Source: Chlamydiota bacterium (GTDB taxonomy: Bacteria; Auribacterota; JACPWU01). Taken from it: a stretch of DNA of 32,000 bases. The notes below the pieces were generated by a model. It had not been told where the DNA came from, ran no database searches, and saw nothing but the letters and a program-made list of their open reading frames with translations. This document shows, piece after piece, positions 4,387 to 26,166 of this stretch (within the stretch, counting starts at the first letter, position 1; each line of letters starts with the position of its first letter). A program made the position numbers and the translations under genes. The DNA lies in assembly GCA_016196885.1 (NCBI GenBank), contig JACPWU010000038.1, positions 1-32,000 of the forward strand, given 5' to 3'.

Positions 4387-4788
4387 GTGAACGATCCCAT
4401 TCGGATTTTGCCAGATCTTCAATTCACCGTTCTTTGCGATGATGTGCGTCGTGAGCACAATGGTAAACTCATTCTCCTGGGGCTTTTTGAAACAGTGGGG
4501 GCGAGCCGTTTCCCCATCATTCATCCGACCCTTTTTGTGGTCAACCGCTGGTGCAATGGAGTGGGGGAATACCGTCAGAACACCGTGATTCGTCAGCCGG
4601 ATAATTCCGTTTTAGCGGAGGATGCGCTCACCGCTATTAAATTGGACGACCTCAAGGCCAAGCACACGGTGATCGCCCGTTTCAACAATCTGCGTTTTTC
4701 CAATCCTGGTGAATATGCGGTAGAAATAAGATTGGATGGAGAATTGAAGATTCGTTATCCCATGGTGTTGACTTCGTCTGCCAAATGA
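4387..4788 (+). CDS. Small uncharacterised beta-rich protein, paralog of 18605-18997
   Basis: 133 aa with a GTG start 3 nt after the upstream stop. It shares LCDD, K-x-[LS]-L-x-G-[LI]-F, FP-x-x-H and PG-x-Y motifs with the 130-aa product of 18605-18997. It may belong to an uncharacterised Pfam DUF (DUF6941 from memory, unverified). Confidence 0.65.
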   Translation: MNDPIRILPDLQFTVLCDDVRREHNGKLILLGLFETVGASRFPIIHPTLFVVNRWCNGVGEYRQNTVIRQPDNSVLAEDALTAIKLDDLKAKHTVIARFNNLRFSNPGEYAVEIRLDGELKIRYPMVLTSSAK

Positions 4789-16924: not shown

Positions 16925-18004
16925 ATGCTACCTTGGCTAGGGCTGGTCATTACGGTATTGATTTTTGCTGTGGGTGTACTCCTCTTCATTCCCTTTTGGA
17001 GAAAAGAAGCCCATTCCAGAGGGGCTTCGTTTGAAAAAACTTTAGAAAGTTTGCGTTCAGAAGTCCGTCTCAATTTGGATGGGAATACGCAGCTCATTCA
17101 ACAACAGCTTCTGGGCATTTTAAAACAAGTGGGCGATCAACTTTATCAGGCGCGGCAGGATTTAGGAGGGAGGCTTGAAGGGACGGTTCGTGTGGTGGGG
17201 GAATTGCAAAATAAATTAGGAAAGCTCGAAGAGTCTAATCGCCAAGTTTATGAAGTGGGACGTGACATTGCCCGGCTTCAAGAGATTTTAAGGGCGCCCA
17301 AATTGAGAGGAGGTTTGGGTGAATTCTTTTTAGGGGACCTTTTAAGCCAGATCATTCCTCCCGAATATTTTTCTCTTCAATATGGTTTTCGCTCAGGGGT
17401 CAAAGTGGATGCGGTCATTCGCCTGGGCGGAAAACAGTTGGTTCCTGTAGATTCAAAATTTCCTTTGGAAAATTTCTTAAAGATTCTCAGTGCCTCGGGT
17501 GACTTAGATAAAAGGTCTTATCGCAGGCAATTTTTGACGGATGTAAAGAAACACATTGATGCCATTGCCTCCAAATACATTTTGCCAGATGAGGGGACTT
17601 TTGATTTTGCGCTCATGTATATCCCGGCGGAAAATGTTTATTATGAAACCATTATCAAAGATGAAGGCGATTCCGAGCATTCCCTCTTTCAATATGCCTT
17701 GGCGAAAAGGGTGGTTCCGGTCTCACCCAATAGTTTTTATGCGTACTTGCAGGTCATTTTGCTTGGGCTTAAGGGAATGAAAATCGAAGAAAGGGCCTTG
17801 GAAACCATTGGTCAATTGAGGCGGCTCTCGGATGAATTTTCAAAATTTAGAGAGGATTTTGATCGTGTAGGAGCCCATTTATCCAATGCAAAAGGCAGCT
17901 TCGAAAAGGCCGAGAAACGTCTCGGCAAATTCGGTGAGAGGCTTTCCGATGTGAGTGCGCTAGAACCTGAGAAGGCAAAGGCATTGGCGCAAGAAGTTGT
18001 TTAG
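16925..18004 (+). CDS. rmuC: DNA recombination protein RmuC
   Basis: N-terminal TM helix, a coiled-coil region, then VDSKFPLENF and MYIPAENVYYE motifs. I moved the start from the ORF-track 16787 to ATG 16925, because the upstream part overlaps the EAL gene. Confidence 0.85.
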   Translation: MLPWLGLVITVLIFAVGVLLFIPFWRKEAHSRGASFEKTLESLRSEVRLNLDGNTQLIQQQLLGILKQVGDQLYQARQDLGGRLEGTVRVVGELQNKLGKLEESNRQVYEVGRDIARLQEILRAPKLRGGLGEFFLGDLLSQIIPPEYFSLQYGFRSGVKVDAVIRLGGKQLVPVDSKFPLENFLKILSASGDLDKRSYRRQFLTDVKKHIDAIASKYILPDEGTFDFALMYIPAENVYYETIIKDEGDSEHSLFQYALAKRVVPVSPNSFYAYLQVILLGLKGMKIEERALETIGQLRRLSDEFSKFREDFDRVGAHLSNAKGSFEKAEKRLGKFGERLSDVSALEPEKAKALAQEVV

Positions 18005-18366
18005 TGAACTGACTTGTGATTGAAAAGTATATCCTTCAAAACGTGTTCAACTTCTCTCAATGTGCCCTTTCCTAAAGATCCCAACTTCCTTTTGATAAGG
18101 GAATGATGTAAAGAGTGTATTTTATCTACGATGATAGCGGATGGTTTTTTAAAACCAGAAGGGTGATAATCAGGATGTGAAGTATCTATTCTGATTAAGA
18201 AAGATCCCTCTCTTCTGATATTAGAGGTTACGAGGCAAAGGATCACATCCTTTTCTTGAAGGTTGTAGGATGTTGTGGAAAGTACCACGGCAGGGCGGAC
18301 CTTTTGAGAGGTAAGATCGGTGTAAGGAAAAACAGTCAGAACAATATCTCCCTGAGAAAGATTCAT
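18001..18366 (-). CDS. PemK/MazF-family toxin (type II TA endoribonuclease)
   Basis: GDIVLTVFPYTD...KVRPAVVLS...ILCLVTSN pattern. The start overlaps the upstream stop (ATGA). Confidence 0.8.
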   Translation of the reverse strand: MNLSQGDIVLTVFPYTDLTSQKVRPAVVLSTTSYNLQEKDVILCLVTSNIRREGSFLIRIDTSHPDYHPSGFKKPSAIIVDKIHSLHHSLIKRKLGSLGKGTLREVEHVLKDILFNHKSVH

Positions 18367-18608
18367 ACCGGATAGCCATCATCAAGAGTGTAAATATCTT
18401 CTTCCTTGTCGTGGAGGAAGGAATGCGAAGGATCATTTTTTGAAATCCATTCTAAGATTTCTTCGTCGGTTGTTTCAAAATCTTGATCTGTAAAATAGAA
18501 GAAGGTCTCATTGGGGATTGTTCCTAGCTCTTGATAGCTTGGCTTAGAAATTTCATTACTTCCCAGAACGAAGAAAAGGAGTGAATTTCCAGTCCGACTC
18601 TTATTCAT
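18363..18608 (-). CDS. Putative acidic antitoxin partner of the MazF-like toxin
   Basis: 81 aa with a D/E-rich C-terminal half (TDQDFETTDEEILEW...DKEEDIYTLDDG). It is ATGA-coupled on both sides. The assignment rests on position and composition only. Confidence 0.5.
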   Translation of the reverse strand: MNKSRTGNSLLFFVLGSNEISKPSYQELGTIPNETFFYFTDQDFETTDEEILEWISKNDPSHSFLHDKEEDIYTLDDGYPV

Positions 18609-18997
18609 AACATATCCCCTTTTAATAGGCTGAAAACTCTTTCTGCAACAGGTTTATTGTCTATGAGAACCTGAAATTTATACTTTCCGGGTTCTGGAAA
18701 AGAAACGTTCAGAAGTTCAAAAGCACACTCAAAGATAGCGTTGGAATCTTTTGACTCGAGTGAGCCTTGGACGTTTACCAGAGATTTCGTGTCTTTAAAT
18801 TTTTTGCATTCTAAAATAATATTATATTTTCCATTGCAATTTGTTAAGGTGAAGTAAATATTCATTCTCCCGTGACAGACGGGAAAATCTTTTGCAAGAA
18901 TCGAATTGAAAATTCCGATGAGACTTTTTTTATGAGTTCTCTTGTCATCTATAATGTCATCACAAGTGATTAAAGTTAGGGCTTTAGGTGTCTCCAT
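18605..18997 (-). CDS. Small uncharacterised beta-rich protein, paralog of 4387-4788
   Basis: The start is set at ATG 18997 (METPKAL...); the ORF track opens at 19054. It shares TCDD, KKSLIGIF, FPVCH and EPGKYKF motifs with 4387-4788. Confidence 0.65.
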   Translation of the reverse strand: METPKALTLITCDDIIDDKRTHKKSLIGIFNSILAKDFPVCHGRMNIYFTLTNCNGKYNIILECKKFKDTKSLVNVQGSLESKDSNAIFECAFELLNVSFPEPGKYKFQVLIDNKPVAERVFSLLKGDML

Positions 18998-19111
18998 TTT
19001 TAAGCGATATTCCTTTCTTCTTCTATTGAAGCATGAATGTCGGATGATAAGCAATAAGATGTGAAGTGTATGAATCTATCTATTTATGATGCAAAGAGTT
19101 AGCATTTTTAA

Positions 19112-19663
19112 CTAAAACGCCACCTTGGGTGCCTGTCTTTCCTCAGACCCTGCCGTTTGAAAAAATTCTTCCGGCATGAATTTGAAGAGACCCGCGATGA
19201 GATGGATTGGAAAACTTTGGAGTTGAGTGTTGTAAGTCGTGACCGTGTCGTTGTAAAAACTTCTCACAGATCCTATTTTATTTTCAGTTGAGGCAAGTTC
19301 TCCCTGTAGGGCCATCATGTTTTGATTGGCTTTAAGATCGGGATAATTTTCCACAACTGCAAAGAGCGACTTCAGCGTGTCGGTCAGCATGTTGTTGGCC
19401 TGTGCTTGTGCCTGAGCGCCCTTTACCTGGGTTGCCATGTTTCTTGCCTGAACCACTTTTTCAAGTGTTTCTCTTTCGTGTTTGAGATAACCCTTGCAGG
19501 TTTCTACCAGATTGGGAATGAGATCATATCTTCTTTTAAGCTGGACATCTATTTGGGCCCAGGCGTTTTTAGCTTTGAGACGAAGGCTTACCAATTTGTT
19601 ATAAGTGAAAATACACCCTAAAACGATAAAGGCAGCGACGCCTAAAATAATCCAGACAGTCAT
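19112..19663 (-). CDS. lemA: LemA family protein
   Basis: N-terminal TM helix followed by YNKLV..R..AKNAWAQIDVQLKRRYDLIPNLVE, the canonical LemA signature. Confidence 0.88.
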   Translation of the reverse strand: MTVWIILGVAAFIVLGCIFTYNKLVSLRLKAKNAWAQIDVQLKRRYDLIPNLVETCKGYLKHERETLEKVVQARNMATQVKGAQAQAQANNMLTDTLKSLFAVVENYPDLKANQNMMALQGELASTENKIGSVRSFYNDTVTTYNTQLQSFPIHLIAGLFKFMPEEFFQTAGSEERQAPKVAF

Positions 19664-19697: not shown

Positions 19698-19742
19698 GTT
19701 TTGTGATACAGTTCTATGAATAAAGCGTATAGTATGAACTGT

Positions 19743-19932
19743 GATGTTGTATTTAAAAGTGTGTCCTTTTATTGATGCGGGTGGCCCGACTGGGGGTCCC
19801 CCGCTGATCGCCAGCAGGTCGAGACTTGAAAATTACTCTTCAAGAACCAAATCGAGACCGATGCCGTCAGCGGGGGTGAGGAGGGACAGGACCCGCCTCC
19901 TCTTAAAAGGGCACACTTTTAAATACACGATC
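19743..19932 (+). mobile_element. Non-autonomous TIR element (MITE-like), copy 1, 190 bp
   Basis: Termini GATGTTGTATTTAAAAGTGTGTCCTTTT ... AAAAGGGCACACTTTTAAATACACGATC. Flanked by the direct repeat TGAACTGT (19735-19742 and 19933-19940). A second copy lies at 24797-24989. Confidence 0.8.
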
Positions 19933-19986
19933 TGAACTGTACGCTGAACGCTAATCGCTGTACGCTTTTTCATGGAGATTAGAAAC

Positions 19987-21660
19987 ATGAGTCAAAATTT
20001 AAAACATCGTAGCAGTGTCTTAACCGATGGTGTGGACCGCTCACCTGCTCGTGCCATGTTGAAGGGGATTGGCTTTACCGATGAGGATTTAAGCCGTCCC
20101 TTGATCGGCGTTGCCAATACCTGGATCGAAGTCATGCCCTGTAATTTTCATCTTCGGCGATTATCTGAAAAAGTGAAAGAGGGAATTCGTGCGGCCGGAG
20201 GAACGCCGATTGAATTTAATACCATTGCAGTTTCGGATGGAATTTCCATGGGAACGGAAGGGATGAAGGCCTCTTTGATCAGTCGCGAAGTTGTGGCGGA
20301 TTCCATTGAACTTGTGGTGCGGGGTCATCTCTTCGATGGCGTGGTGGCTCTTTCAGGCTGTGACAAAACCATTCCAGGAACTGTGATGGCCTTGGCGCGG
20401 CTGGATTTACCTTCGGTGATGCTTTATGGAGGCTCGATCCTGCCGGGGCAATTTCAGGGGCATGATGTGACCATTCAAGATGTTTTTGAGGCTGTAGGGG
20501 CTTGCTCTGCCGGGAAAATGAATTTGGATCAATTGCGCGATTTGGAGAATCATGCCTGTCCTGGCGCGGGGGCCTGCGGGGGGCAGTTCACGGCCAATAC
20601 CATGGCGATTGCGATGGAGATGTTGGGCATTTCTCCCATGGGGAGCGCAAGCGTTCCCGCGATGGATCCTAAAAAGGATGAGGTCGCTTTTCAAATGGGA
20701 CAAGTTGTGATGAATGCCCTTAAAAATGATTTGCGGCCAAGCAAAATCATCACTCACAACGCGCTTGAAAATTCCATTGCCTCCATTGCCTTGACGGGGG
20801 GATCCACCAATGGGGTTTTGCATTTGCTCGCGATTGCGTATGAACTTGGCATTCCCTTGGCCATGGAGGATTTTGACCGCATCAGTTCTCGCACCCCGCT
20901 TCTGGGAGATTTAAAACCGGGCGGCCGCTTTGTTGCAACCGATCTTTACAAAGCAGGGGGCACCCGTTTGGTCGCTCAACGATTGAAGGATGCAAATCTA
21001 CTTCACCGAAATGAAATGACGATTACTGGAAAGAAAATGGGAGAGGAGGCCTCTCTAGCTCAAGAAACTCCGGGCCAGGTAGTCCTGCGGCCGCTCTCAA
21101 AGCCTTTGAAACCTACCGGTGGTTTTGTGATTTTAAAAGGGAATCTTTCTCCGGAGGGATGTGTGGTGAAAGTTGCAGGCCATGAACGCATGTATCAAAA
21201 AGGGCCGGCGCGTGTGTTTGACAGTGAGGAGGCCGCTTTCGAGGCAGTTCGGGCCCGGAAAATTAAATCGGGAGATGTGGTGGTCATTCGCTATGAAGGT
21301 CCGAAGGGAGGGCCTGGCATGCGGGAAATGCTGGCGGTGACAGCGGCCCTCGTGGGAGAGGGCCTTGGAGAGAGTGTTTCACTTTTGACAGACGGTCGAT
21401 TTTCAGGAGCGACGCATGGACTCATGGCAGGACATGTTTCTCCAGAGGCGGCTTGCGGCGGTCCGATTGCAGCTTTAAAGGATGAAGATCAAATTATTTT
21501 TGATATTAAAAATCGTCAATTAAATGTTGAACTTTCAGATGAAGAAATGCGTCTCCGGCTAGAAAGATGGACGCCTCCAAAGCCTCACTATCAAAAAGGT
21601 GTCATGGCCAAATATGCTAAAATGGTCTCTTCGGCGGCAAAGGGGGCGGTGACGGGGTAA
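19987..21660 (+). CDS. ilvD: Dihydroxy-acid dehydratase
   Basis: [19 protein letters not shown] and [16 protein letters not shown] motifs. I prefer the start at ATG 19987 (GGAGA 10 nt upstream) over 19972. Confidence 0.92.
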
Positions 21661-21785
21661 AAAATCAAAATTCAAAAATCAAATATCAAAATGACATATT
21701 AAAATTCAAAATGTTCCAATATCCGAGCAGATGTAGAAATTTTAATTTTTGATTTGTCATTTTGATTTTTAAATTTTGATATTTT
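21661..21785. repeat. A/T-rich imperfect hairpin of AAAWTCA heptamer arrays
   Basis: A 12-bp perfect core, ATCAAAATGACA (21685-21696) with TGTCATTTTGAT (21755-21766), is flanked by imperfectly complementary 7-nt-periodic arrays. It begins at the base after the ilvD stop. Confidence 0.55.
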
Positions 21786-21803
21786 AAGGGAGGCAGGACT
21801 CCG

Positions 21804-23105
21804 GTGAAGAAGTCCCTTTTTTTTACTATTCTCTTTGTCCTTTTCATTTCCATTTCATCCCTTGCCTCCGTTGCCTATCGCATTGATGTGGAGGGTCCCA
21901 TCAACGATGTTTTGGCTGATTTTGTTGTTCATTCCATTCAAGAAGCGCAAGATCATCAGGCCCCTTTTGTGATTTTGAGGCTCAGCACACCGGGTGGTTT
22001 TGATACCGCCATGCGAAAAATTATTTCAGAGATTCTCGGCAGTCGTATTCCTGTCATTGTGTATGTTGGCCCCGCGGGAGCCCGTGCTGCCTCTGCCGGT
22101 TTTTTTATTTTGCTGGCTGGCGATGTAGCTGTCATGGCCTCTGGAACCAACACCGGTTCGGCCCATCCCCTCTTGGCATTGGGTGGGATTTACCCGATCG
22201 AAAAGGGAAAGGGGATGAAAACGCTCTCGGAAAAAGTGATGAACGATGCCAGGGCCTATTTACGGGGGATTGCCGAAAAGCGCGGAAGAAATGTAGAATG
22301 GGCCGAAAAGGGAATCACGGAAAGCAAATCTTACACAGAGAAAGAGGCCCTGGAGGGAAAACTCATTGAGCTCGTCGTCAAAGACGAAAAGGAGTTGATG
22401 AAGGTTTTAAGAGGTCGTGAGGTGACCCGGTTTTCAAAAGAGAAAGTGACTTTACCTGTAGGTTCTGTCTCGCTCAAAGTTTGCGAAATGACTGGGCGGC
22501 AAAAAATTCTTTTGGCCATCAGTGATCCCAATCTGGCCCTTTTGCTGGGACTTGTCGGGCTTTTGCTGATTTATTTTGAATTCAGTAACCCCGGTCTGAT
22601 TGCCCCGGCGGTGCTCGGGGCCCTTTGTCTTTTGGTCTCCATGATTGGCTTTTCGATTCTCCCCATCAACTTTGTGGGTGCCCTCTTGATGATTTTGGCG
22701 CTGGGCCTTTTCATTGCAGAAATTAAAGTCCAGGGCTTTGGCATTTTGGGGATAGGCGGTATTATTTCGCTTCTCGTCGGGGCCTTGATTTTGGTAGATG
22801 CACCCGAGAGCAATCTTGGAATCAGACCTGTGGTCGCTGTGGCAGTCGTTCTTTCCTTTGGTGCCATTCTGATGCTTTTGGTTCGATTGACCGTAAAAAG
22901 TTTACACAGGAAAGTCCAGACAGGTCTTGCTGGAATGATTGGGCTCACAGGCGTAGCCCACAGCGCCATTGGGTTGGAGGGCCAAGTCCATGTCCGGGGA
23001 GAATATTGGAATGCCATTTCTTCGAGCCCGATTCCTGAAGGAAAAAAAGTGCGCGTGGTGAAGGTGGAAAATCTGAAGGTGGTGGTGGAGGAAGTCAAAA
23101 ACTAA
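21804..23105 (+). CDS. NfeD-family membrane-bound ClpP-class serine protease
   Basis: 433 aa with a GTG start behind GGGAGG. It has a signal/anchor, a ClpP-like domain, multiple TM helices and a C-terminal OB-like domain (VRGEYWNA...VRVVKVENLKVVV). Partner gene of SPFH. Confidence 0.85.
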   Translation: MKKSLFFTILFVLFISISSLASVAYRIDVEGPINDVLADFVVHSIQEAQDHQAPFVILRLSTPGGFDTAMRKIISEILGSRIPVIVYVGPAGARAASAGFFILLAGDVAVMASGTNTGSAHPLLALGGIYPIEKGKGMKTLSEKVMNDARAYLRGIAEKRGRNVEWAEKGITESKSYTEKEALEGKLIELVVKDEKELMKVLRGREVTRFSKEKVTLPVGSVSLKVCEMTGRQKILLAISDPNLALLLGLVGLLLIYFEFSNPGLIAPAVLGALCLLVSMIGFSILPINFVGALLMILALGLFIAEIKVQGFGILGIGGIISLLVGALILVDAPESNLGIRPVVAVAVVLSFGAILMLLVRLTVKSLHRKVQTGLAGMIGLTGVAHSAIGLEGQVHVRGEYWNAISSSPIPEGKKVRVVKVENLKVVVEEVKN

Positions 23106-23111
23106 AAAAAA

Positions 23112-23200
23112 GTTCAAAGGTTTAAAGGTTCAAAAGTTCAAAGGAAAAAGCTCCAAAGTGCATCAACCTTTGAACCTTTGAACTTTTGGACCTTTAAACC
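23112..23200. repeat. Hairpin of GTTYAAAR octamer arrays between nfeD and the SPFH gene
   Basis: GTTTAAAGGTTCAAAAGTTCAAAGG (23120-23144) pairs 24/25 with the complement within 23167-23200. Both arms have 8-nt periodicity. Confidence 0.75.
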
Positions 23201-23217
23201 TTCGTAAAGGAGGAACT

Positions 23218-23979
23218 ATGCTTGCCGCTTATCCATTTACTATTTTTATCGGTGTGATTATTTTTTATTTGATGAGCTCTCTTAAGATTTTAAATGAATA
23301 CGAACGGGGCGTCATTTTTAGGCTAGGACGGGTGTTGGGAGAGGCGAAGGGGCCGGGCCTCATTTTTGTGTTTTGGCCCATTGATCGGATGGTGCGGGTT
23401 TCCTTAAGAACCATCACCTTTGACGTTCCTCCCCAGGATATTATTACGAAAGACAATGTCTCTGTGAAAGTAAATGCCGTTGCCTATTTCAGGGTGGTGA
23501 ATCCGGTTCGGGCGATCATTGACGTTGAAAGTTTTCTATATGCGACTTCTCAGTTAGCCCAGACGACCTTGAGATCGGTGTTGGGAGAAGTAGAGTTGGA
23601 CGATTTGCTCAGCAAAAGAGAAACGCTGAATGTAAAATTGCAAAATATTTTGGATACACATACGGACCCTTGGGGGATTAAGGTGTCTTTGGTTGAAGTG
23701 AAACAAGTAGATTTACCTCCCGAAATGGTTCGGGCTATTTCTAAGCAGGCTGAGGCTGAACGGGAAAAGCGGGCCAAAATTATTCATGCTGAAGGAGAAT
23801 TTCAAGCGGCTGAAAAACTTTATCAAGCCTCTCGCGTGATTGCTCAAGAACCTGCTGCGATTCAGCTACGTTATTTACAGACTTTGACGGAGATTGGGGT
23901 TGAGAAAAATACCACCATTATTTTCCCACTGCCGATCAATATTCTGGAAAACTTTATTAAGAAAAATTCAAAAGTTTAA
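23218..23979 (+). CDS. SPFH/Band 7 (stomatin-like) protein
   Basis: [28 protein letters not shown] and the Glu/Ala-rich [16 protein letters not shown] region. Confidence 0.9.
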
Positions 23980-24041
23980 AGGTTCAAAGAATGAGCACCC
24001 ATGAACCTTTGAACTTTTGAACCTTGGAACCTTTGAACTTT
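23967..24041. repeat. Second hairpin of the same GTTCAAAG octamer family, overlapping the SPFH stop
   Basis: TTCAAAAGTTTAAAGGTTC (23967-23985) pairs 18/19 with GAACCTTTGAACTTTTGAA (24003-24021). The right array continues to 24041. Confidence 0.7.
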
Positions 24042-24055
24042 CATAAGGAGGTCTT

Positions 24056-24286
24056 ATGGTCAGCGCCTATATTTTCATTGAAACCGATCATGGAAAGGCA
24101 AAGTCCGTTCGTGAAGACATTCAAAAATTCTCCTTTGTGAAGCGAGTCCATTTGGTGACAGGTCCTTATGATTTGGTCGCCTTTGTCGAAGCCCTCGATC
24201 TGGCTGCCCTGGGTGATTCTATCACTGTGAAGGTCCAGTCTATTCCTGGGGTGGTGAAGAGTCTTACCAATATTGTGGTGGAGTAG
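24056..24286 (+). CDS. Stand-alone Lrp/AsnC ligand-binding (RAM) domain protein
   Basis: 76 aa, YIFIETD...V..V..V.GPYDLVAFVE pattern. There is no HTH domain. Confidence 0.7.
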   Translation: MVSAYIFIETDHGKAKSVREDIQKFSFVKRVHLVTGPYDLVAFVEALDLAALGDSITVKVQSIPGVVKSLTNIVVE

Positions 24287-24310
24287 GCTATTCCAAGGTA
24301 GCGTCTCTAA

Positions 24311-24417
24311 CTTTTCTTTAATGGACTTTGGAGAGGACGGCATTATTTTGCAAAACAAATTGAAATTTTTGCTATTGAAGAGAAGACAAGATGATTGGTC
24401 ATAACCGTGATTACAAG
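24311..24417 (+). pseudogene. Possible remnant of a DUF4258-like toxin gene (frameshifted C-terminal fragment)
   Basis: A 27-codon ORF (24311-24394: MDFGEDGIILQNKLKFLLLKRRQDDWS) plus a +1-frame tail LVITVITRYF (24385-24417) resemble the C-terminal ..G..L.VV....VITV.. end of DUF4258 proteins, which usually precede DUF2283 genes. Recognition by eye only. Confidence 0.25.
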
Positions 24418-24439
24418 GTATTTTTAAAGGGAGGTCTTC

Positions 24440-24676
24440 ATGAAACTCACTTATGATCCTCGCTATAACATTGCCTATTTGCGTCTGCACGAGAAGACAG
24501 ATTCGGTTGAGACGATTCATATCAGCGATGAATTGAATGTGGATATTGCCTCGGATGGGACTGTGTATGGGATTGAACTTTTGAATGCGAATCAGCAATT
24601 GTGTGCAGAAGATGCTGGGAAGCTGGTGTTTGTCAATGAGGCTTTGGGAAAGAGCAAGGAAATTTCATTTAAGTAA
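24440..24676 (+). CDS. DUF2283 family protein
   Basis: MKLTYDPRYNIAYLRL ... VDIASDGTVYGIELLNANQQL matches the DUF2283 pattern (YD-x-x-x-D/N-x-x-Y-I/L ... G-x-I/V-x-G-I-E-I/L). Confidence 0.75.
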   Translation: MKLTYDPRYNIAYLRLHEKTDSVETIHISDELNVDIASDGTVYGIELLNANQQLCAEDAGKLVFVNEALGKSKEISFK

Positions 24677-24796
24677 GAATTTCAAAGTTGGCATGCTAAG
24701 CTGAACGAAGAAGAGGAATAAGATCCCTCGCCCGCCTTTCCGAGCGAGAGCGAGGCTGGATCCCGCCGACGTTGCGTCGGGATCCTCGGGATGACT

Positions 24797-24989
24797 GATC
24801 CAGTATTTAAAAGTGTGTCCTTTGGAAAGGTGGCGGGTCCTGCCGCCCAACCACCCCATCAACGGCATCGGTCTCGATGAGGGATCGAGATGTATAGCTG
24901 ATGCGAATGACTCGACCTGCTGGCGCTTGATGGGGACCCCGTTGGGCGTCACCCGCATGAATAAAGGACACACTTTTAAATACATTATC
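24797..24989 (-). mobile_element. Non-autonomous TIR element (MITE-like), copy 2, 193 bp, inverted relative to copy 1
   Basis: The reverse complement aligns end to end with 19743-19932. Flanked by the direct repeat GGATGACT (24789-24796 and 24990-24997). Confidence 0.8.
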
Positions 24990-25088
24990 GGATGACTGTT
25001 GCGCAGTCATTTTCCTTGACTTTTATCTTTATTTTTACTATACCAAACTCGTGTAGGAGAGTATGCTAAAGAAAGGAGGTGAGCTCGA

Positions 25089-25394
25089 ATGTTGGAGATC
25101 ATCTTCTTAGGGTTGGCATGCATGAGTGCGCCTCTTTTTGCCAAGTATGCGGGTTTTGAGCACAAAAAGCTGGCCTTTGATATGGTGGGGCTTTCTGGGA
25201 TGTTTTTCCTTCTAGGTTCGGCTTTTATGCTTGTGTCCTCGAAGCTTGAAATGTTCAGTGGGCTGGGTCATTACGGAATGCTTTTCAGCTATTTCGTCGG
25301 CCTTTTGGGCATGGTGATCGGGGCTCTCTTGGCAGGGTTAGATCTTCTGATGGAATTTTTCATGCATCCCGAAAAGTTGTTCCAACACGGATAA
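25089..25394 (+). CDS. Small hypothetical membrane protein (about 3 TM)
   Basis: 101-aa hydrophobic ORF with a GGAGG RBS 6 nt upstream. No family recognised. Confidence 0.5.
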   Translation: MLEIIFLGLACMSAPLFAKYAGFEHKKLAFDMVGLSGMFFLLGSAFMLVSSKLEMFSGLGHYGMLFSYFVGLLGMVIGALLAGLDLLMEFFMHPEKLFQHG

Positions 25395-25443: not shown

Positions 25444-26166
25444 TTATTGTTTAAACAACCCCTGAATTTTTGTGAGCGACAATTCCTGAAAACTTTTGAG
25501 CACCAGGTCTGACTCTTTTAATTGCGACTTCGAATACGTGTGGGCCAAGGCAAGCGATTTCATCTGGGCCTTGTGAGTTCCTCTCACCCCCGCAATAGAA
25601 TCTTCGATGACCAAACACTCCTGAGGAAGGATTTTTTTGAAGCGGTTTAATTTCTTAAGGGCTAATAAATAACTTTCCGGATCGGGCTTGCTTTTTTTTG
25701 TGTCTTCGGCAGCAATAATCACTTTGAATTTTTTGAGAATCCCCGCCCTTTTCAAAATCCAGCCTATCTCACTTCCCAAAGCAGCCGAGGCAATGGCAAG
25801 CGGGTATTTTTTGGAGAGAATGTTCACCCATTTTTTCACGCCAGCAAAGAGCGTGAGGTGTTTTTCAATATAGGCCTCATAGGCATGCGCTTTCCTCTCT
25901 ACCAGCTTTCTGATTTTTGACCTTGAAATCGGATGTCCCTCTTTGTTTAGAATTTTTTCAAAACAATTTTTATCATCAAAGGCCAAATAATGGCTGTAAT
26001 ACTCTTGGGCGCTTAACCGGATTCCTTCCTCTTTCAAAATTTTCTGAAACATTTTTAAGTGAATCGGTTCATCGTTCACAATGACGCCGTTGAAGTCGAA
26101 GATGATGGCTTTTAATGAAAAAAGTCGTGAGTCGTGAGTCGTGAGTCGTGAGTGTTGAGTTGTCAT
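25444..26166 (-). CDS. HAD-superfamily hydrolase (beta-phosphoglucomutase-like subfamily IA)
   Basis: Motif I IIFDFNGV (the second Asp is Asn), KSKPDPE, and VIEDSIAGVRG. The first ~15 codons are encoded by a 7-nt tandem repeat. Confidence 0.75.
   Translation of the reverse strand: MTTQHSRLTTHDSRLFSLKAIIFDFNGVIVNDEPIHLKMFQKILKEEGIRLSAQEYYSHYLAFDDKNCFEKILNKEGHPISRSKIRKLVERKAHAYEAYIEKHLTLFAGVKKWVNILSKKYPLAIASAALGSEIGWILKRAGILKKFKVIIAAEDTKKSKPDPESYLLALKKLNRFKKILPQECLVIEDSIAGVRGTHKAQMKSLALAHTYSKSQLKESDLVLKSFQELSLTKIQGLFKQ
26124..26165. repeat. Heptanucleotide tandem repeat (GTCGTGA)x4 plus two degenerate units
   Basis: Perfect units at 26124-26151 and degenerate units GTGTTGA, GTTGTCA to 26165. 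It shares the exact 13-mer GTGAGTCGTGAGT with the 3864-3950 hairpin and has no complementary arm nearby. Confidence 0.85.

Follow-up and report, generated by a model that had tools for sequence, protein, structure and literature searches.

The DNA considered here (the window) is a stretch of 32,000 nucleotides from contig JACPWU010000038.1 of assembly GCA_016196885.1, and it carries two copies, in opposite orientations, of a short element bounded by inverted repeats. We describe this element as a MITE (miniature inverted-repeat transposable element). A MITE is a non-coding DNA transposon that has only the terminal inverted repeats (TIRs) needed by a transposase, and it is moved by an enzyme encoded elsewhere in the genome. 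Copy 1 is situated within the spacer between the divergent genes lemA (19112-19663, minus strand, identified by Pfam) and ilvD. The distance from its right end to the start codon of ilvD downstream is 54 bp; this codon is an ATG at 19987 that is supported by a 100%-identical NCBI protein. Copy 2 follows a DUF2283 gene (24440-24676) and precedes a small open reading frame (ORF; 25089-25394). The segment between the copies contains ilvD, nfeD, band7 and asnC, and relatives without the element have these genes in the same order. The boundaries of the copies, their TIRs and their flanking direct repeats are listed below; the skeleton named in the list is the pattern GN5GTN9TGTGT derived from the IS256 family, as described later.

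19735..19742, no strand: left target-site duplication of copy 1 (TGAACTGT), identical to 19933-19940
19743..19932, plus strand: MITE copy 1, 190 bp, from alignment and blastn/nhmmer
19743..19769, plus strand: left TIR of copy 1, GAT GTT GTATTTAAAAGTGTGTCCTTT, from the inverted-repeat search; matches the skeleton GN5GTN9TGTGT
19906..19932, minus strand: right TIR of copy 1, read inward GAT CGT GTATTTAAAAGTGTGCCCTTT, with 1 mismatch to the 18-nt terminus
19933..19940, no strand: right target-site duplication of copy 1 (TGAACTGT), read directly
24789..24796, no strand: left target-site duplication of copy 2 (GGATGACT), read directly
24797..24989, minus strand: MITE copy 2, 193 bp, from alignment and blastn/nhmmer
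24797..24823, plus strand: TIR at the low-coordinate end of copy 2, GAT CCA GTATTTAAAAGTGTGTCCTTT, from the inverted-repeat search and from terminus and skeleton matches
24963..24989, minus strand: TIR at the high-coordinate end of copy 2, read inward GAT AAT GTATTTAAAAGTGTGTCCTTT, from the inverted-repeat search and from terminus and skeleton matches
24990..24997, no strand: right target-site duplication of copy 2 (GGATGACT), read directly

These positions were read directly in the window, and the coordinates and strings that an earlier reading of the sequence alone (the sequence-only reading) had given for both copies and their duplications are all correct. Each copy is bracketed by its own exact direct repeat, which is 8 bp long precisely, the next outward base being mismatched on either side. 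For a given pair of ends, an exact 8-bp repeat abuts by chance with a probability of 4^-8 (1.5e-5), and for two pairs the value is about 2e-10; two independent exact duplications cannot be due to chance. In a pairwise alignment that included 28 bp of flank, the copies are 75% identical overall, and the similarity is bounded sharply by the terminal GAT and ATC, beyond which the flanks are unrelated.

The ends of the element are much better conserved than its interior. All four conform to GAT-NNN-GTATTTAAAAGTGTG(T/C)CCTTT and agree almost completely over bp 7-27; between the interiors of the two copies the difference is 25%. When the 18-nt terminus GTATTTAAAAGTGTGTCC was searched in the window at up to 3 mismatches, it gave four matches (with 0, 1, 0 and 0 mismatches in fact) against an expectation of 0.04. 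According to the inverted-repeat search, the TIR arms are 27-29 bp long and 90-100% complementary in both copies; the terminal stem that the sequence-only reading had put at about 23 bp is thus present and slightly longer than was thought. The base composition is also distinctive, with a G+C content of 30-33% in the 27-bp ends, 60-61% in the cores and 45% on average in the window. Searches of the window with the element by blastn and nhmmer returned the 2 copies only, with no third copy or fragment.

No transposase or transposase remnant is present in the window. Pfam scans of 35 of the 36 principal ORFs found none, Transposase_mut (PF00872) included, and tblastn with 17 IS256-family transposases against the window gave nothing at E<=1e-3, which agrees with what had been claimed from the sequence alone. 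Inside the copies, the ORFs are only read-throughs of the repeat of 24-67 aa, apart from one 106-aa ORF that extends into the flank. One frame, the same in either copy, stays open over the whole length (YLKVCP...SRPMP...KGHTFKY), for which the chance is about 0.2 per copy. The element plus one duplication measures 198 bp for copy 1 and 201 bp for copy 2, both multiples of 3, so that, with the open frame, an insertion into a gene could remain in frame. The read-through peptides had no match among the 5.8 billion proteins searched.

The element is therefore a real MITE, in that every property of such elements that can be tested in the window was found: it is small, has TIRs of 27-29 bp, carries a separate 8-bp duplication at each copy, and shows homology that ends at the TIR tips, just as had been proposed. 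This class of element is ordinary and well known, but the family itself seems to be undescribed.

To compare the ends with those of known elements, we sampled 17 diverse IS256-family elements from plasmids by tblastn and determined their ends by an inverted-repeat search, using the flanking duplications as a check. The IS256 end was checked in PMC4207318 and in plasmid pTEF1, and the ISCth4 end was taken from PMC7780238. Nine of the sampled elements together with ISCth4, 10 members in all, can be aligned without gaps from the tip, giving 19 in-register ends in which the columns G1, G7-T8 and T18-G-T-G-T22 are invariant or nearly so. Note that this skeleton was defined without reference to the MITE, whose tips are fixed independently by the 8-bp duplications. 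Three of the MITE termini have all 8 skeleton bases and the fourth has 7, the right TIR of copy 1 reading TGTGC instead of TGTGT. In the 32-kb window, the pattern GN5GTN9TGTGT has 3 matches on both strands together, with 0.37 expected, and all of them are at MITE tips.

Further properties were compared. TIRs of the IS256 family range from 24 to 41 bp and start with G(G/A) in ISfinder; the MITE TIR is about 27 bp long and starts with GAT, and among the 19 sampled ends 17 start with G and 12 with GA. Exact 8-bp duplications were found in 7 of the sampled members, and target duplications of the family are 8-9 bp (PMC3189936; PMC7780238). For this family, PMC7780238 also describes duplications of 8 bp, copy-out/paste-in transposition, contacts of the transposase with the TIR at bp 7-11 and 14-25 and, citing Dodd et al. 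1994, the motif TGTAAA in a subterminal position. Counted from the tip, the 19 in-register ends agree with the MITE TIR at 8-15 of 21 positions (15 for an Acinetobacter element, 14 for the left ends of IS256 and IS16), and four members in a shifted register do so at 6-10 of 21. The other families compared were IS6, IS66 and ISL3 only; these also make 8-bp duplications, and their ends agree with the MITE TIR at 6-8 of 21 positions. With moderate confidence, then, an IS256-type helper transposase appears from the terminal sequences to be the best-supported candidate, and the fit is partial. In particular, the earlier statement that the TIR could not be matched to any insertion sequence family is superseded, to the extent that the TIR now fits the IS256-family skeleton in part.

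Several observations weigh against a MITE with an IS256-type helper. The full position-weight score of the MITE TIR is -1.5 to -6.6, compared with 13-31 for true members left out in turn; about 0.3% of control positions score as high as the MITE TIR, whose score is about 3 standard deviations above background. The MITE has TGTCCT at bp 20-25 where the family has TGTAAA, and only TGT is common to both; TGTAAA is also missing from two of the sampled members, the Methylococcus element and ISEc58, which have TGTGTG or TGTGAG. Moreover, the TGTGT core is in a shifted register in 4 of the 14 sampled IS256-family members with resolvable ends. As regards mobility, no empty site can be shown at the level of bases: the element is absent from the syntenic spacers of the relatives L022, L023 and L025, but these have diverged too far to be aligned base by base. 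Only two copies are known, both in the 32-kb window, and no autonomous element with the MITE TIRs was found in the collections scanned. The exact terminus GTATTTAAAAGTGTGYCC was found at 5 loci among 185,579 species-representative genomes, at 7 loci in IMG/VR and at 24 in JGI metagenome contigs, each of these being a lone match without an inverted partner, and blastn of the element against the plasmid collection gave no match.

Around these terminus matches, similarity reaches only 19-26 nt, and we treat them as chance matches with a single exception. The exception is positions 1189-1229 of L027 (JGI contig Ga0124853_1121145), where 31 nt are 90% identical to an end of copy 2, including 8 nt internal to the TIR (CATGAATA). 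This match has no partner end and no transposase nearby, and it may represent the solo end of an element related to this one, in a different metagenome. No IS256-type transposase is encoded at any locus with the 18-mer, and a search of IMG/VR with an internal conserved block gave only single matches with no partner end. Since no further copies were found in the public collections searched, the family is rare or lineage-restricted in public data. Rfam gave no match to the whole window at gathering thresholds; at E<=10 around copy 1, the best hits were eukaryotic miRNA and snoRNA models far below threshold (E = 0.18 and 1.6). Among other known systems, a MITE of the cyanobacterial Nezha type, which the heptamer repeats described below had brought to mind, was dropped because IlvD points to a metagenome-assembled genome of the PVC group. 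Retron, attC, omega-RNA and bridge-RNA readings were likewise rejected: none of them yields TIRs with 8-bp duplications, and no gene for a partner protein is adjacent.

Each copy is predicted to fold as one long rod on either strand. The fold of copy 1 has an energy of -92 kcal/mol (z = -8.0; -84.9 kcal/mol for the opposite strand) and that of copy 2 has -85.9 kcal/mol (z = -8.05). In the consensus structure, six helices comprise 53 pairs, all of which form in copy 1 and copy 2 alike. The arms of the rod are not simple mirror images, each keeping its own sequence common to both copies. The internal features are as follows.

19798..19807, plus strand: 5' arm of helix 5 (CCCCCGCTGA), pairing with 19867-19876 (TCAGCGGGGG); four adjacent pairs changed on both sides
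19809..19823, plus strand: internal block CGCCAGCAGGTCGAG, identical in both copies despite the 25% overall difference (alignments)
19851..19867, plus strand: internal block ATCGAGACCGATGCCGT, identical in both copies (alignments)

In copy 2, helix 5 consists of CCCCATCAA and TTGATGGGG. Six pairs are changed on both sides between the copies, compared with 0-1 in slid controls; among 500 shuffles the number is 3.0 +/- 1.2, with 7 shuffles reaching 6. Four of the six are adjacent, with GCUG/CAGC in copy 1 and AUCA/UGAU in copy 2, and all the changes are Watson-Crick on both strands; these counts are based on n=2 sequences. The paired changes could stem from selection, whether on an RNA or on a DNA fold, or from a single event of templated quasi-palindrome correction. 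The two conserved blocks, of 15 and 17 nt, are situated in the internal-loop region. We take the rod-like hairpin predicted for the interior to be real; its role could be to bring the ends together or to act as an RNA hairpin or terminator if transcribed, or it could merely be kept up by DNA-templated palindrome correction.

The folding results lend themselves to a different explanation: the main role of the element would be that of a functional structured RNA or of a regulatory palindrome (for instance as a terminator for both directions or, like ERIC or Correia repeats, as a substrate of RNase III), conservation would concern its structure rather than its mobility, and its mobility features would be historical. 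The common rod of 53 pairs (100% of cells paired, z about -8), the excess of double-sided changes over the slid controls and the perfect conservation of the internal-loop blocks are all consistent with this, and in both directions a GC-rich stem base is followed by TTTTAAAT, in the manner of a terminator. However, only two sequences are available, and the four adjacent compensated pairs could have arisen from one templated correction of a quasi-palindrome in DNA. Because the two strands pair equally well, the fold points to no particular orientation of a transcript; Rfam has no match, and a terminator at copy 1, between divergent genes, would have no obvious use. This explanation also leaves the two different perfect 8-bp duplications unexplained, and we find it quite improbable as an account of the element, structure being at most a secondary function of the MITE. 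It is also conceivable in principle that nothing here is mobile, and that the copies represent a local segmental duplication, a pair of chance palindromes or the two ends of one composite element spanning 19743-24989. The copies are in fact only 4.9 kb apart and inverted, and no other copy was found in the collections searched. Nevertheless, each copy has its own duplication, and the mismatch between the outer flanks, with TGAACTGT on the left and GGATGACT on the right, shows that the pair was not inserted as a unit; chance repeats of this kind have the probability given above. In addition, the ilvD, nfeD, band7 and asnC-type genes between the copies occur in the same order in relatives lacking the element; a composite transposon would therefore have a cargo of syntenic housekeeping genes, and its outer flanks would differ. 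The sequence-only reading had itself named inclusion of the direct repeats in a larger duplicated segment as an outcome that would tell against it; the flanks outside the copies are unrelated, and the intervening genes are syntenic without the element. The two different duplications together with the synteny effectively refute a non-mobile origin, and we give it almost no credence.

The remaining question is which enzyme would move the element. An 8-bp duplication is not unique to IS256, as exact 8-bp duplications also occur at IS1216 (IS6 family) and at an IS66-family element in locus L067, and the helper could belong to another DDE family that makes them (ISL3, IS1595, IS6, IS66, some subgroups of IS4 or IS5, or one that is undescribed). 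IS6 ends have G1, T3 and G7-T8 in common with the MITE, and the missing TGTAAA and the poor score against the full IS256 profile are also easier to accommodate in this way. On the other hand, none of the sampled IS6, IS66 and ISL3 ends, with their 6-8 agreements in 21 positions, has TGTGT at bp 18-22 (IS1595 being outside the sample), and the IS256 skeleton matches at the tips defined by the duplications and nowhere else in the window. We therefore regard a helper from another family as possible but somewhat unlikely. The explanation that we favour, and that we consider probable, is a MITE with TIRs and no transposase that is mobilised in trans, most likely by a transposase of the IS256 family (Mutator-like DDE).

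A mechanism can be proposed for such a helper, in which the ends and the duplications come from this analysis and the other steps from IS256 and ISCth4 (PMC7780238). By analogy with these elements, an IS256-type DDE transposase encoded elsewhere would bind bp 7-27 of each end in two parts, with one domain near bp 7-11 and another along the block at bp 14-25, which is invariant here. The GAT tip would be the cleavage site, and bp 4-6 would be free to vary. One strand would be nicked at the GAT tip and joined near the other end, and replication would then release a circle with abutted TIRs. Finally, the circle would integrate across an 8-bp staggered cut, the repair of which would leave the 8-bp duplication.

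The conservation of the ends and the divergence of the interiors form the pattern that is expected if the ends are maintained because they must be recognised. The duplications also bear on the history of the copies. If the divergence post-dated insertion, the probability that both 8-bp pairs are still intact is estimated at roughly 0.015. Perfect duplications, near-identical ends and interiors that are 25% diverged together indicate that the copies probably came from two sources that had already diverged, and two diverged source elements imply that more copies exist, or existed, in the same genome or in a donor.

A more elaborate version of the favoured explanation is that the element is a structured MITE, in which the covarying helices and the loop blocks CGCCAGCAGGTCGAG and ATCGAGACCGATGCCGT form a selected functional module of single-stranded DNA or RNA, and that it represents an in-frame-tolerant, undescribed family derived from IS256 and confined to an uncultivated PVC-group lineage. 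We consider this version unlikely. If true, the selected module could juxtapose the IS256-type ends for copy-out, or it could act in transcripts, for instance by terminating them, by being a target for RNase III or as a small RNA, and make insertions near genes tolerable.

Taken alone, the finding is of little weight, since MITEs are well known and routine in metagenome-assembled genomes. However, the element marks an IS256-type transposase that would be active, at present or recently, in a poorly known uncultivated lineage. Copy 1, lying 54 bp upstream of the ilvD start in a divergent promoter region, may affect the expression of ilvD, and annotation of the ilvD promoter and 5' untranslated region should reckon with it. 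A promoter scanner called nothing facing outward at the right end of copy 1, where the sole candidate, TTTAAA-16-TACGCT, matches the consensus at 7 of 12 positions. The pair of copies is a small and clean case of TIR conservation combined with compensated helices, and more copies could separate selection on structure from templated palindrome repair. In addition, GN5GTN9TGTGT is a handy search pattern for orphan IS256-type MITEs.

In the relatives L022, L023 and L025, whose IlvD proteins have about 80% identity to that of the window, the gene order is lemA-(TPR)-ilvD-nfeD-band7-asnC-HAD, and no copy of the element is present in about 65 kb of their syntenic sequence. A stretch of about 1.1 kb that runs from the DUF2283 gene through copy 2 to the ORF at 25089-25394 is missing from L022 and L025, where asnC abuts the HAD hydrolase gene. 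A 185-aa minus-strand ORF at 24041-24598 is an artefact, the plus strand coding there for an AsnC-type ligand-binding protein (24056-24286) and the DUF2283 protein (24440-24676). When the insertion sites are reconstructed, that of copy 1 (19735-19965) is beside a run of xxxCGCT heptamers (GTACGCT GAACGCT AATCGCT GTACGCT) and inside the loop of an AGCGTA...TACGCT hairpin, and that of copy 2 (24989-25020) falls within the 5' arm of a hairpin with TTTT after it, ATGACTG-TTGCG-CAGTCAT. Both insertions are thus at small secondary-structure or repeat features, although two sites are too few to establish a target preference. Directly to the left of copy 2, downstream of the DUF2283 gene, is a GC-rich segment (24722-24787) with two adjacent hairpins (CCCTCGCCCG...CGAGCGAGAG; GGATCCCGCCGACG..CGTCGGGATCC); blastn and nhmmer found no similarity between this segment and the MITE interior.

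The window has some further features of its own. Many intergenic spacers contain two arrays of 7-8-nt tandem repeats in inverted arrangement, for example (GTGAGTG)n facing (CTCACCC)n and (AAAGGTTC)n facing (AACCTTTG)n. Such arrays are located at 3866-3892/3914-3946, 13405-13443/13461-13522, 21660-21712/21739-21787, 23108-23144/23165-23202, 23959-23988/24002-24038 and 26123-26153. Each inverted pair forms a long hairpin of short repeats, one pair being 100% complementary over 39 nt, and the arrays may be unusual terminators or RNA-stability elements. Because the same type of array occurs in the lemA-ilvD spacer of L023, it looks lineage-wide. A MazF/PemK toxin gene is located at 18001-18366 with a small overlapping upstream ORF at 18363-18608, likely the antitoxin, and there are two paralogous DUF6941 genes (4387-4788 and 18605-19054). 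NCBI labels both the source of the window and the relative GCA_016178055.1 as 'Chlamydiae bacterium'. Among the genes present are ilvD (with ilvN/ilvC/leuA as well in the relative), those for Wzy/GT4 glycan functions and ExbBD, and one for an ETF-QO-like oxidoreductase; since this looks free-living, unlike a classical chlamydia, the label may be coarse.

Several known systems can be compared with the element. REP and REPIN sequences, which are mobilised by RAYT, are palindromes of 20-40 bp or doublets of these with a head of the GTAG/CGTC type, no architecture of TIRs plus duplications and very many copies; the element does not fit this description, being 190 bp long with TIRs and 8-bp duplications and having only two copies in the window. 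Rickettsia palindromic elements are palindromic repeats that are able to remain in frame and that have no clear TIRs or duplications. The element is like them in its frame, open from end to end, and in its length plus duplication, a multiple of 3; it is unlike them in that both copies are intergenic, no copy within a gene is known and no database protein contains the peptide.

A parallel in origin is provided by MITECca01/02 of Cardinium, which are derived from IS982, are about 240 bp long and have their parent ISCca4 in the same genome (PMC9769881). Like the element as interpreted here, they are lineage-restricted derivatives of an insertion sequence in an uncultivated bacterium, with TIRs that match the parental family, and MITECca was found by manual curation; here the likely type is IS256 rather than IS982, and the parent was not found. 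A parallel in form is provided by Correia/NEMIS of Neisseria, ERIC/IRU of enterobacteria, RUP of Streptococcus pneumoniae and bcr1 of the Bacillus cereus group, which are non-coding intergenic elements of 100-200 bp with TIRs and target duplications. These form long hairpins over the whole element, and compensatory changes are reported for some; their duplications are 2-5 bp (often TA), and they are linked to other transposase families or to none. As these families are generally understood, the element resembles Correia, ERIC, RUP and bcr1 in its working and differs from them in the length of the duplication and in its likely helper. It has no known sequence similarity to structured bacterial MITE families, and Rfam, which holds some such families, gave no match.

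The IS256 family (IS256, IS1542, IS16, ISCth4, ISXax1 and ISEc58 among others; Mutator-like DDE, copy-out/paste-in) differs from the MITE in several respects: the MITE has no transposase gene, TGTCCT for TGTAAA, a low profile score and no known cognate insertion sequence, and its interior is a GC-rich palindrome, unlike the untranslated sequence of the family. Nevertheless, the two have in common an 8-bp duplication, a TIR of about 27 bp starting with GA, the skeleton G1 / G7-T8 / T18-GTGT-22 with identities of up to 15/21 (the Acinetobacter element 15, the left inverted repeat of IS256 14), and a bipartite TIR layout in which a variable stretch separates the tip from an inner conserved block.

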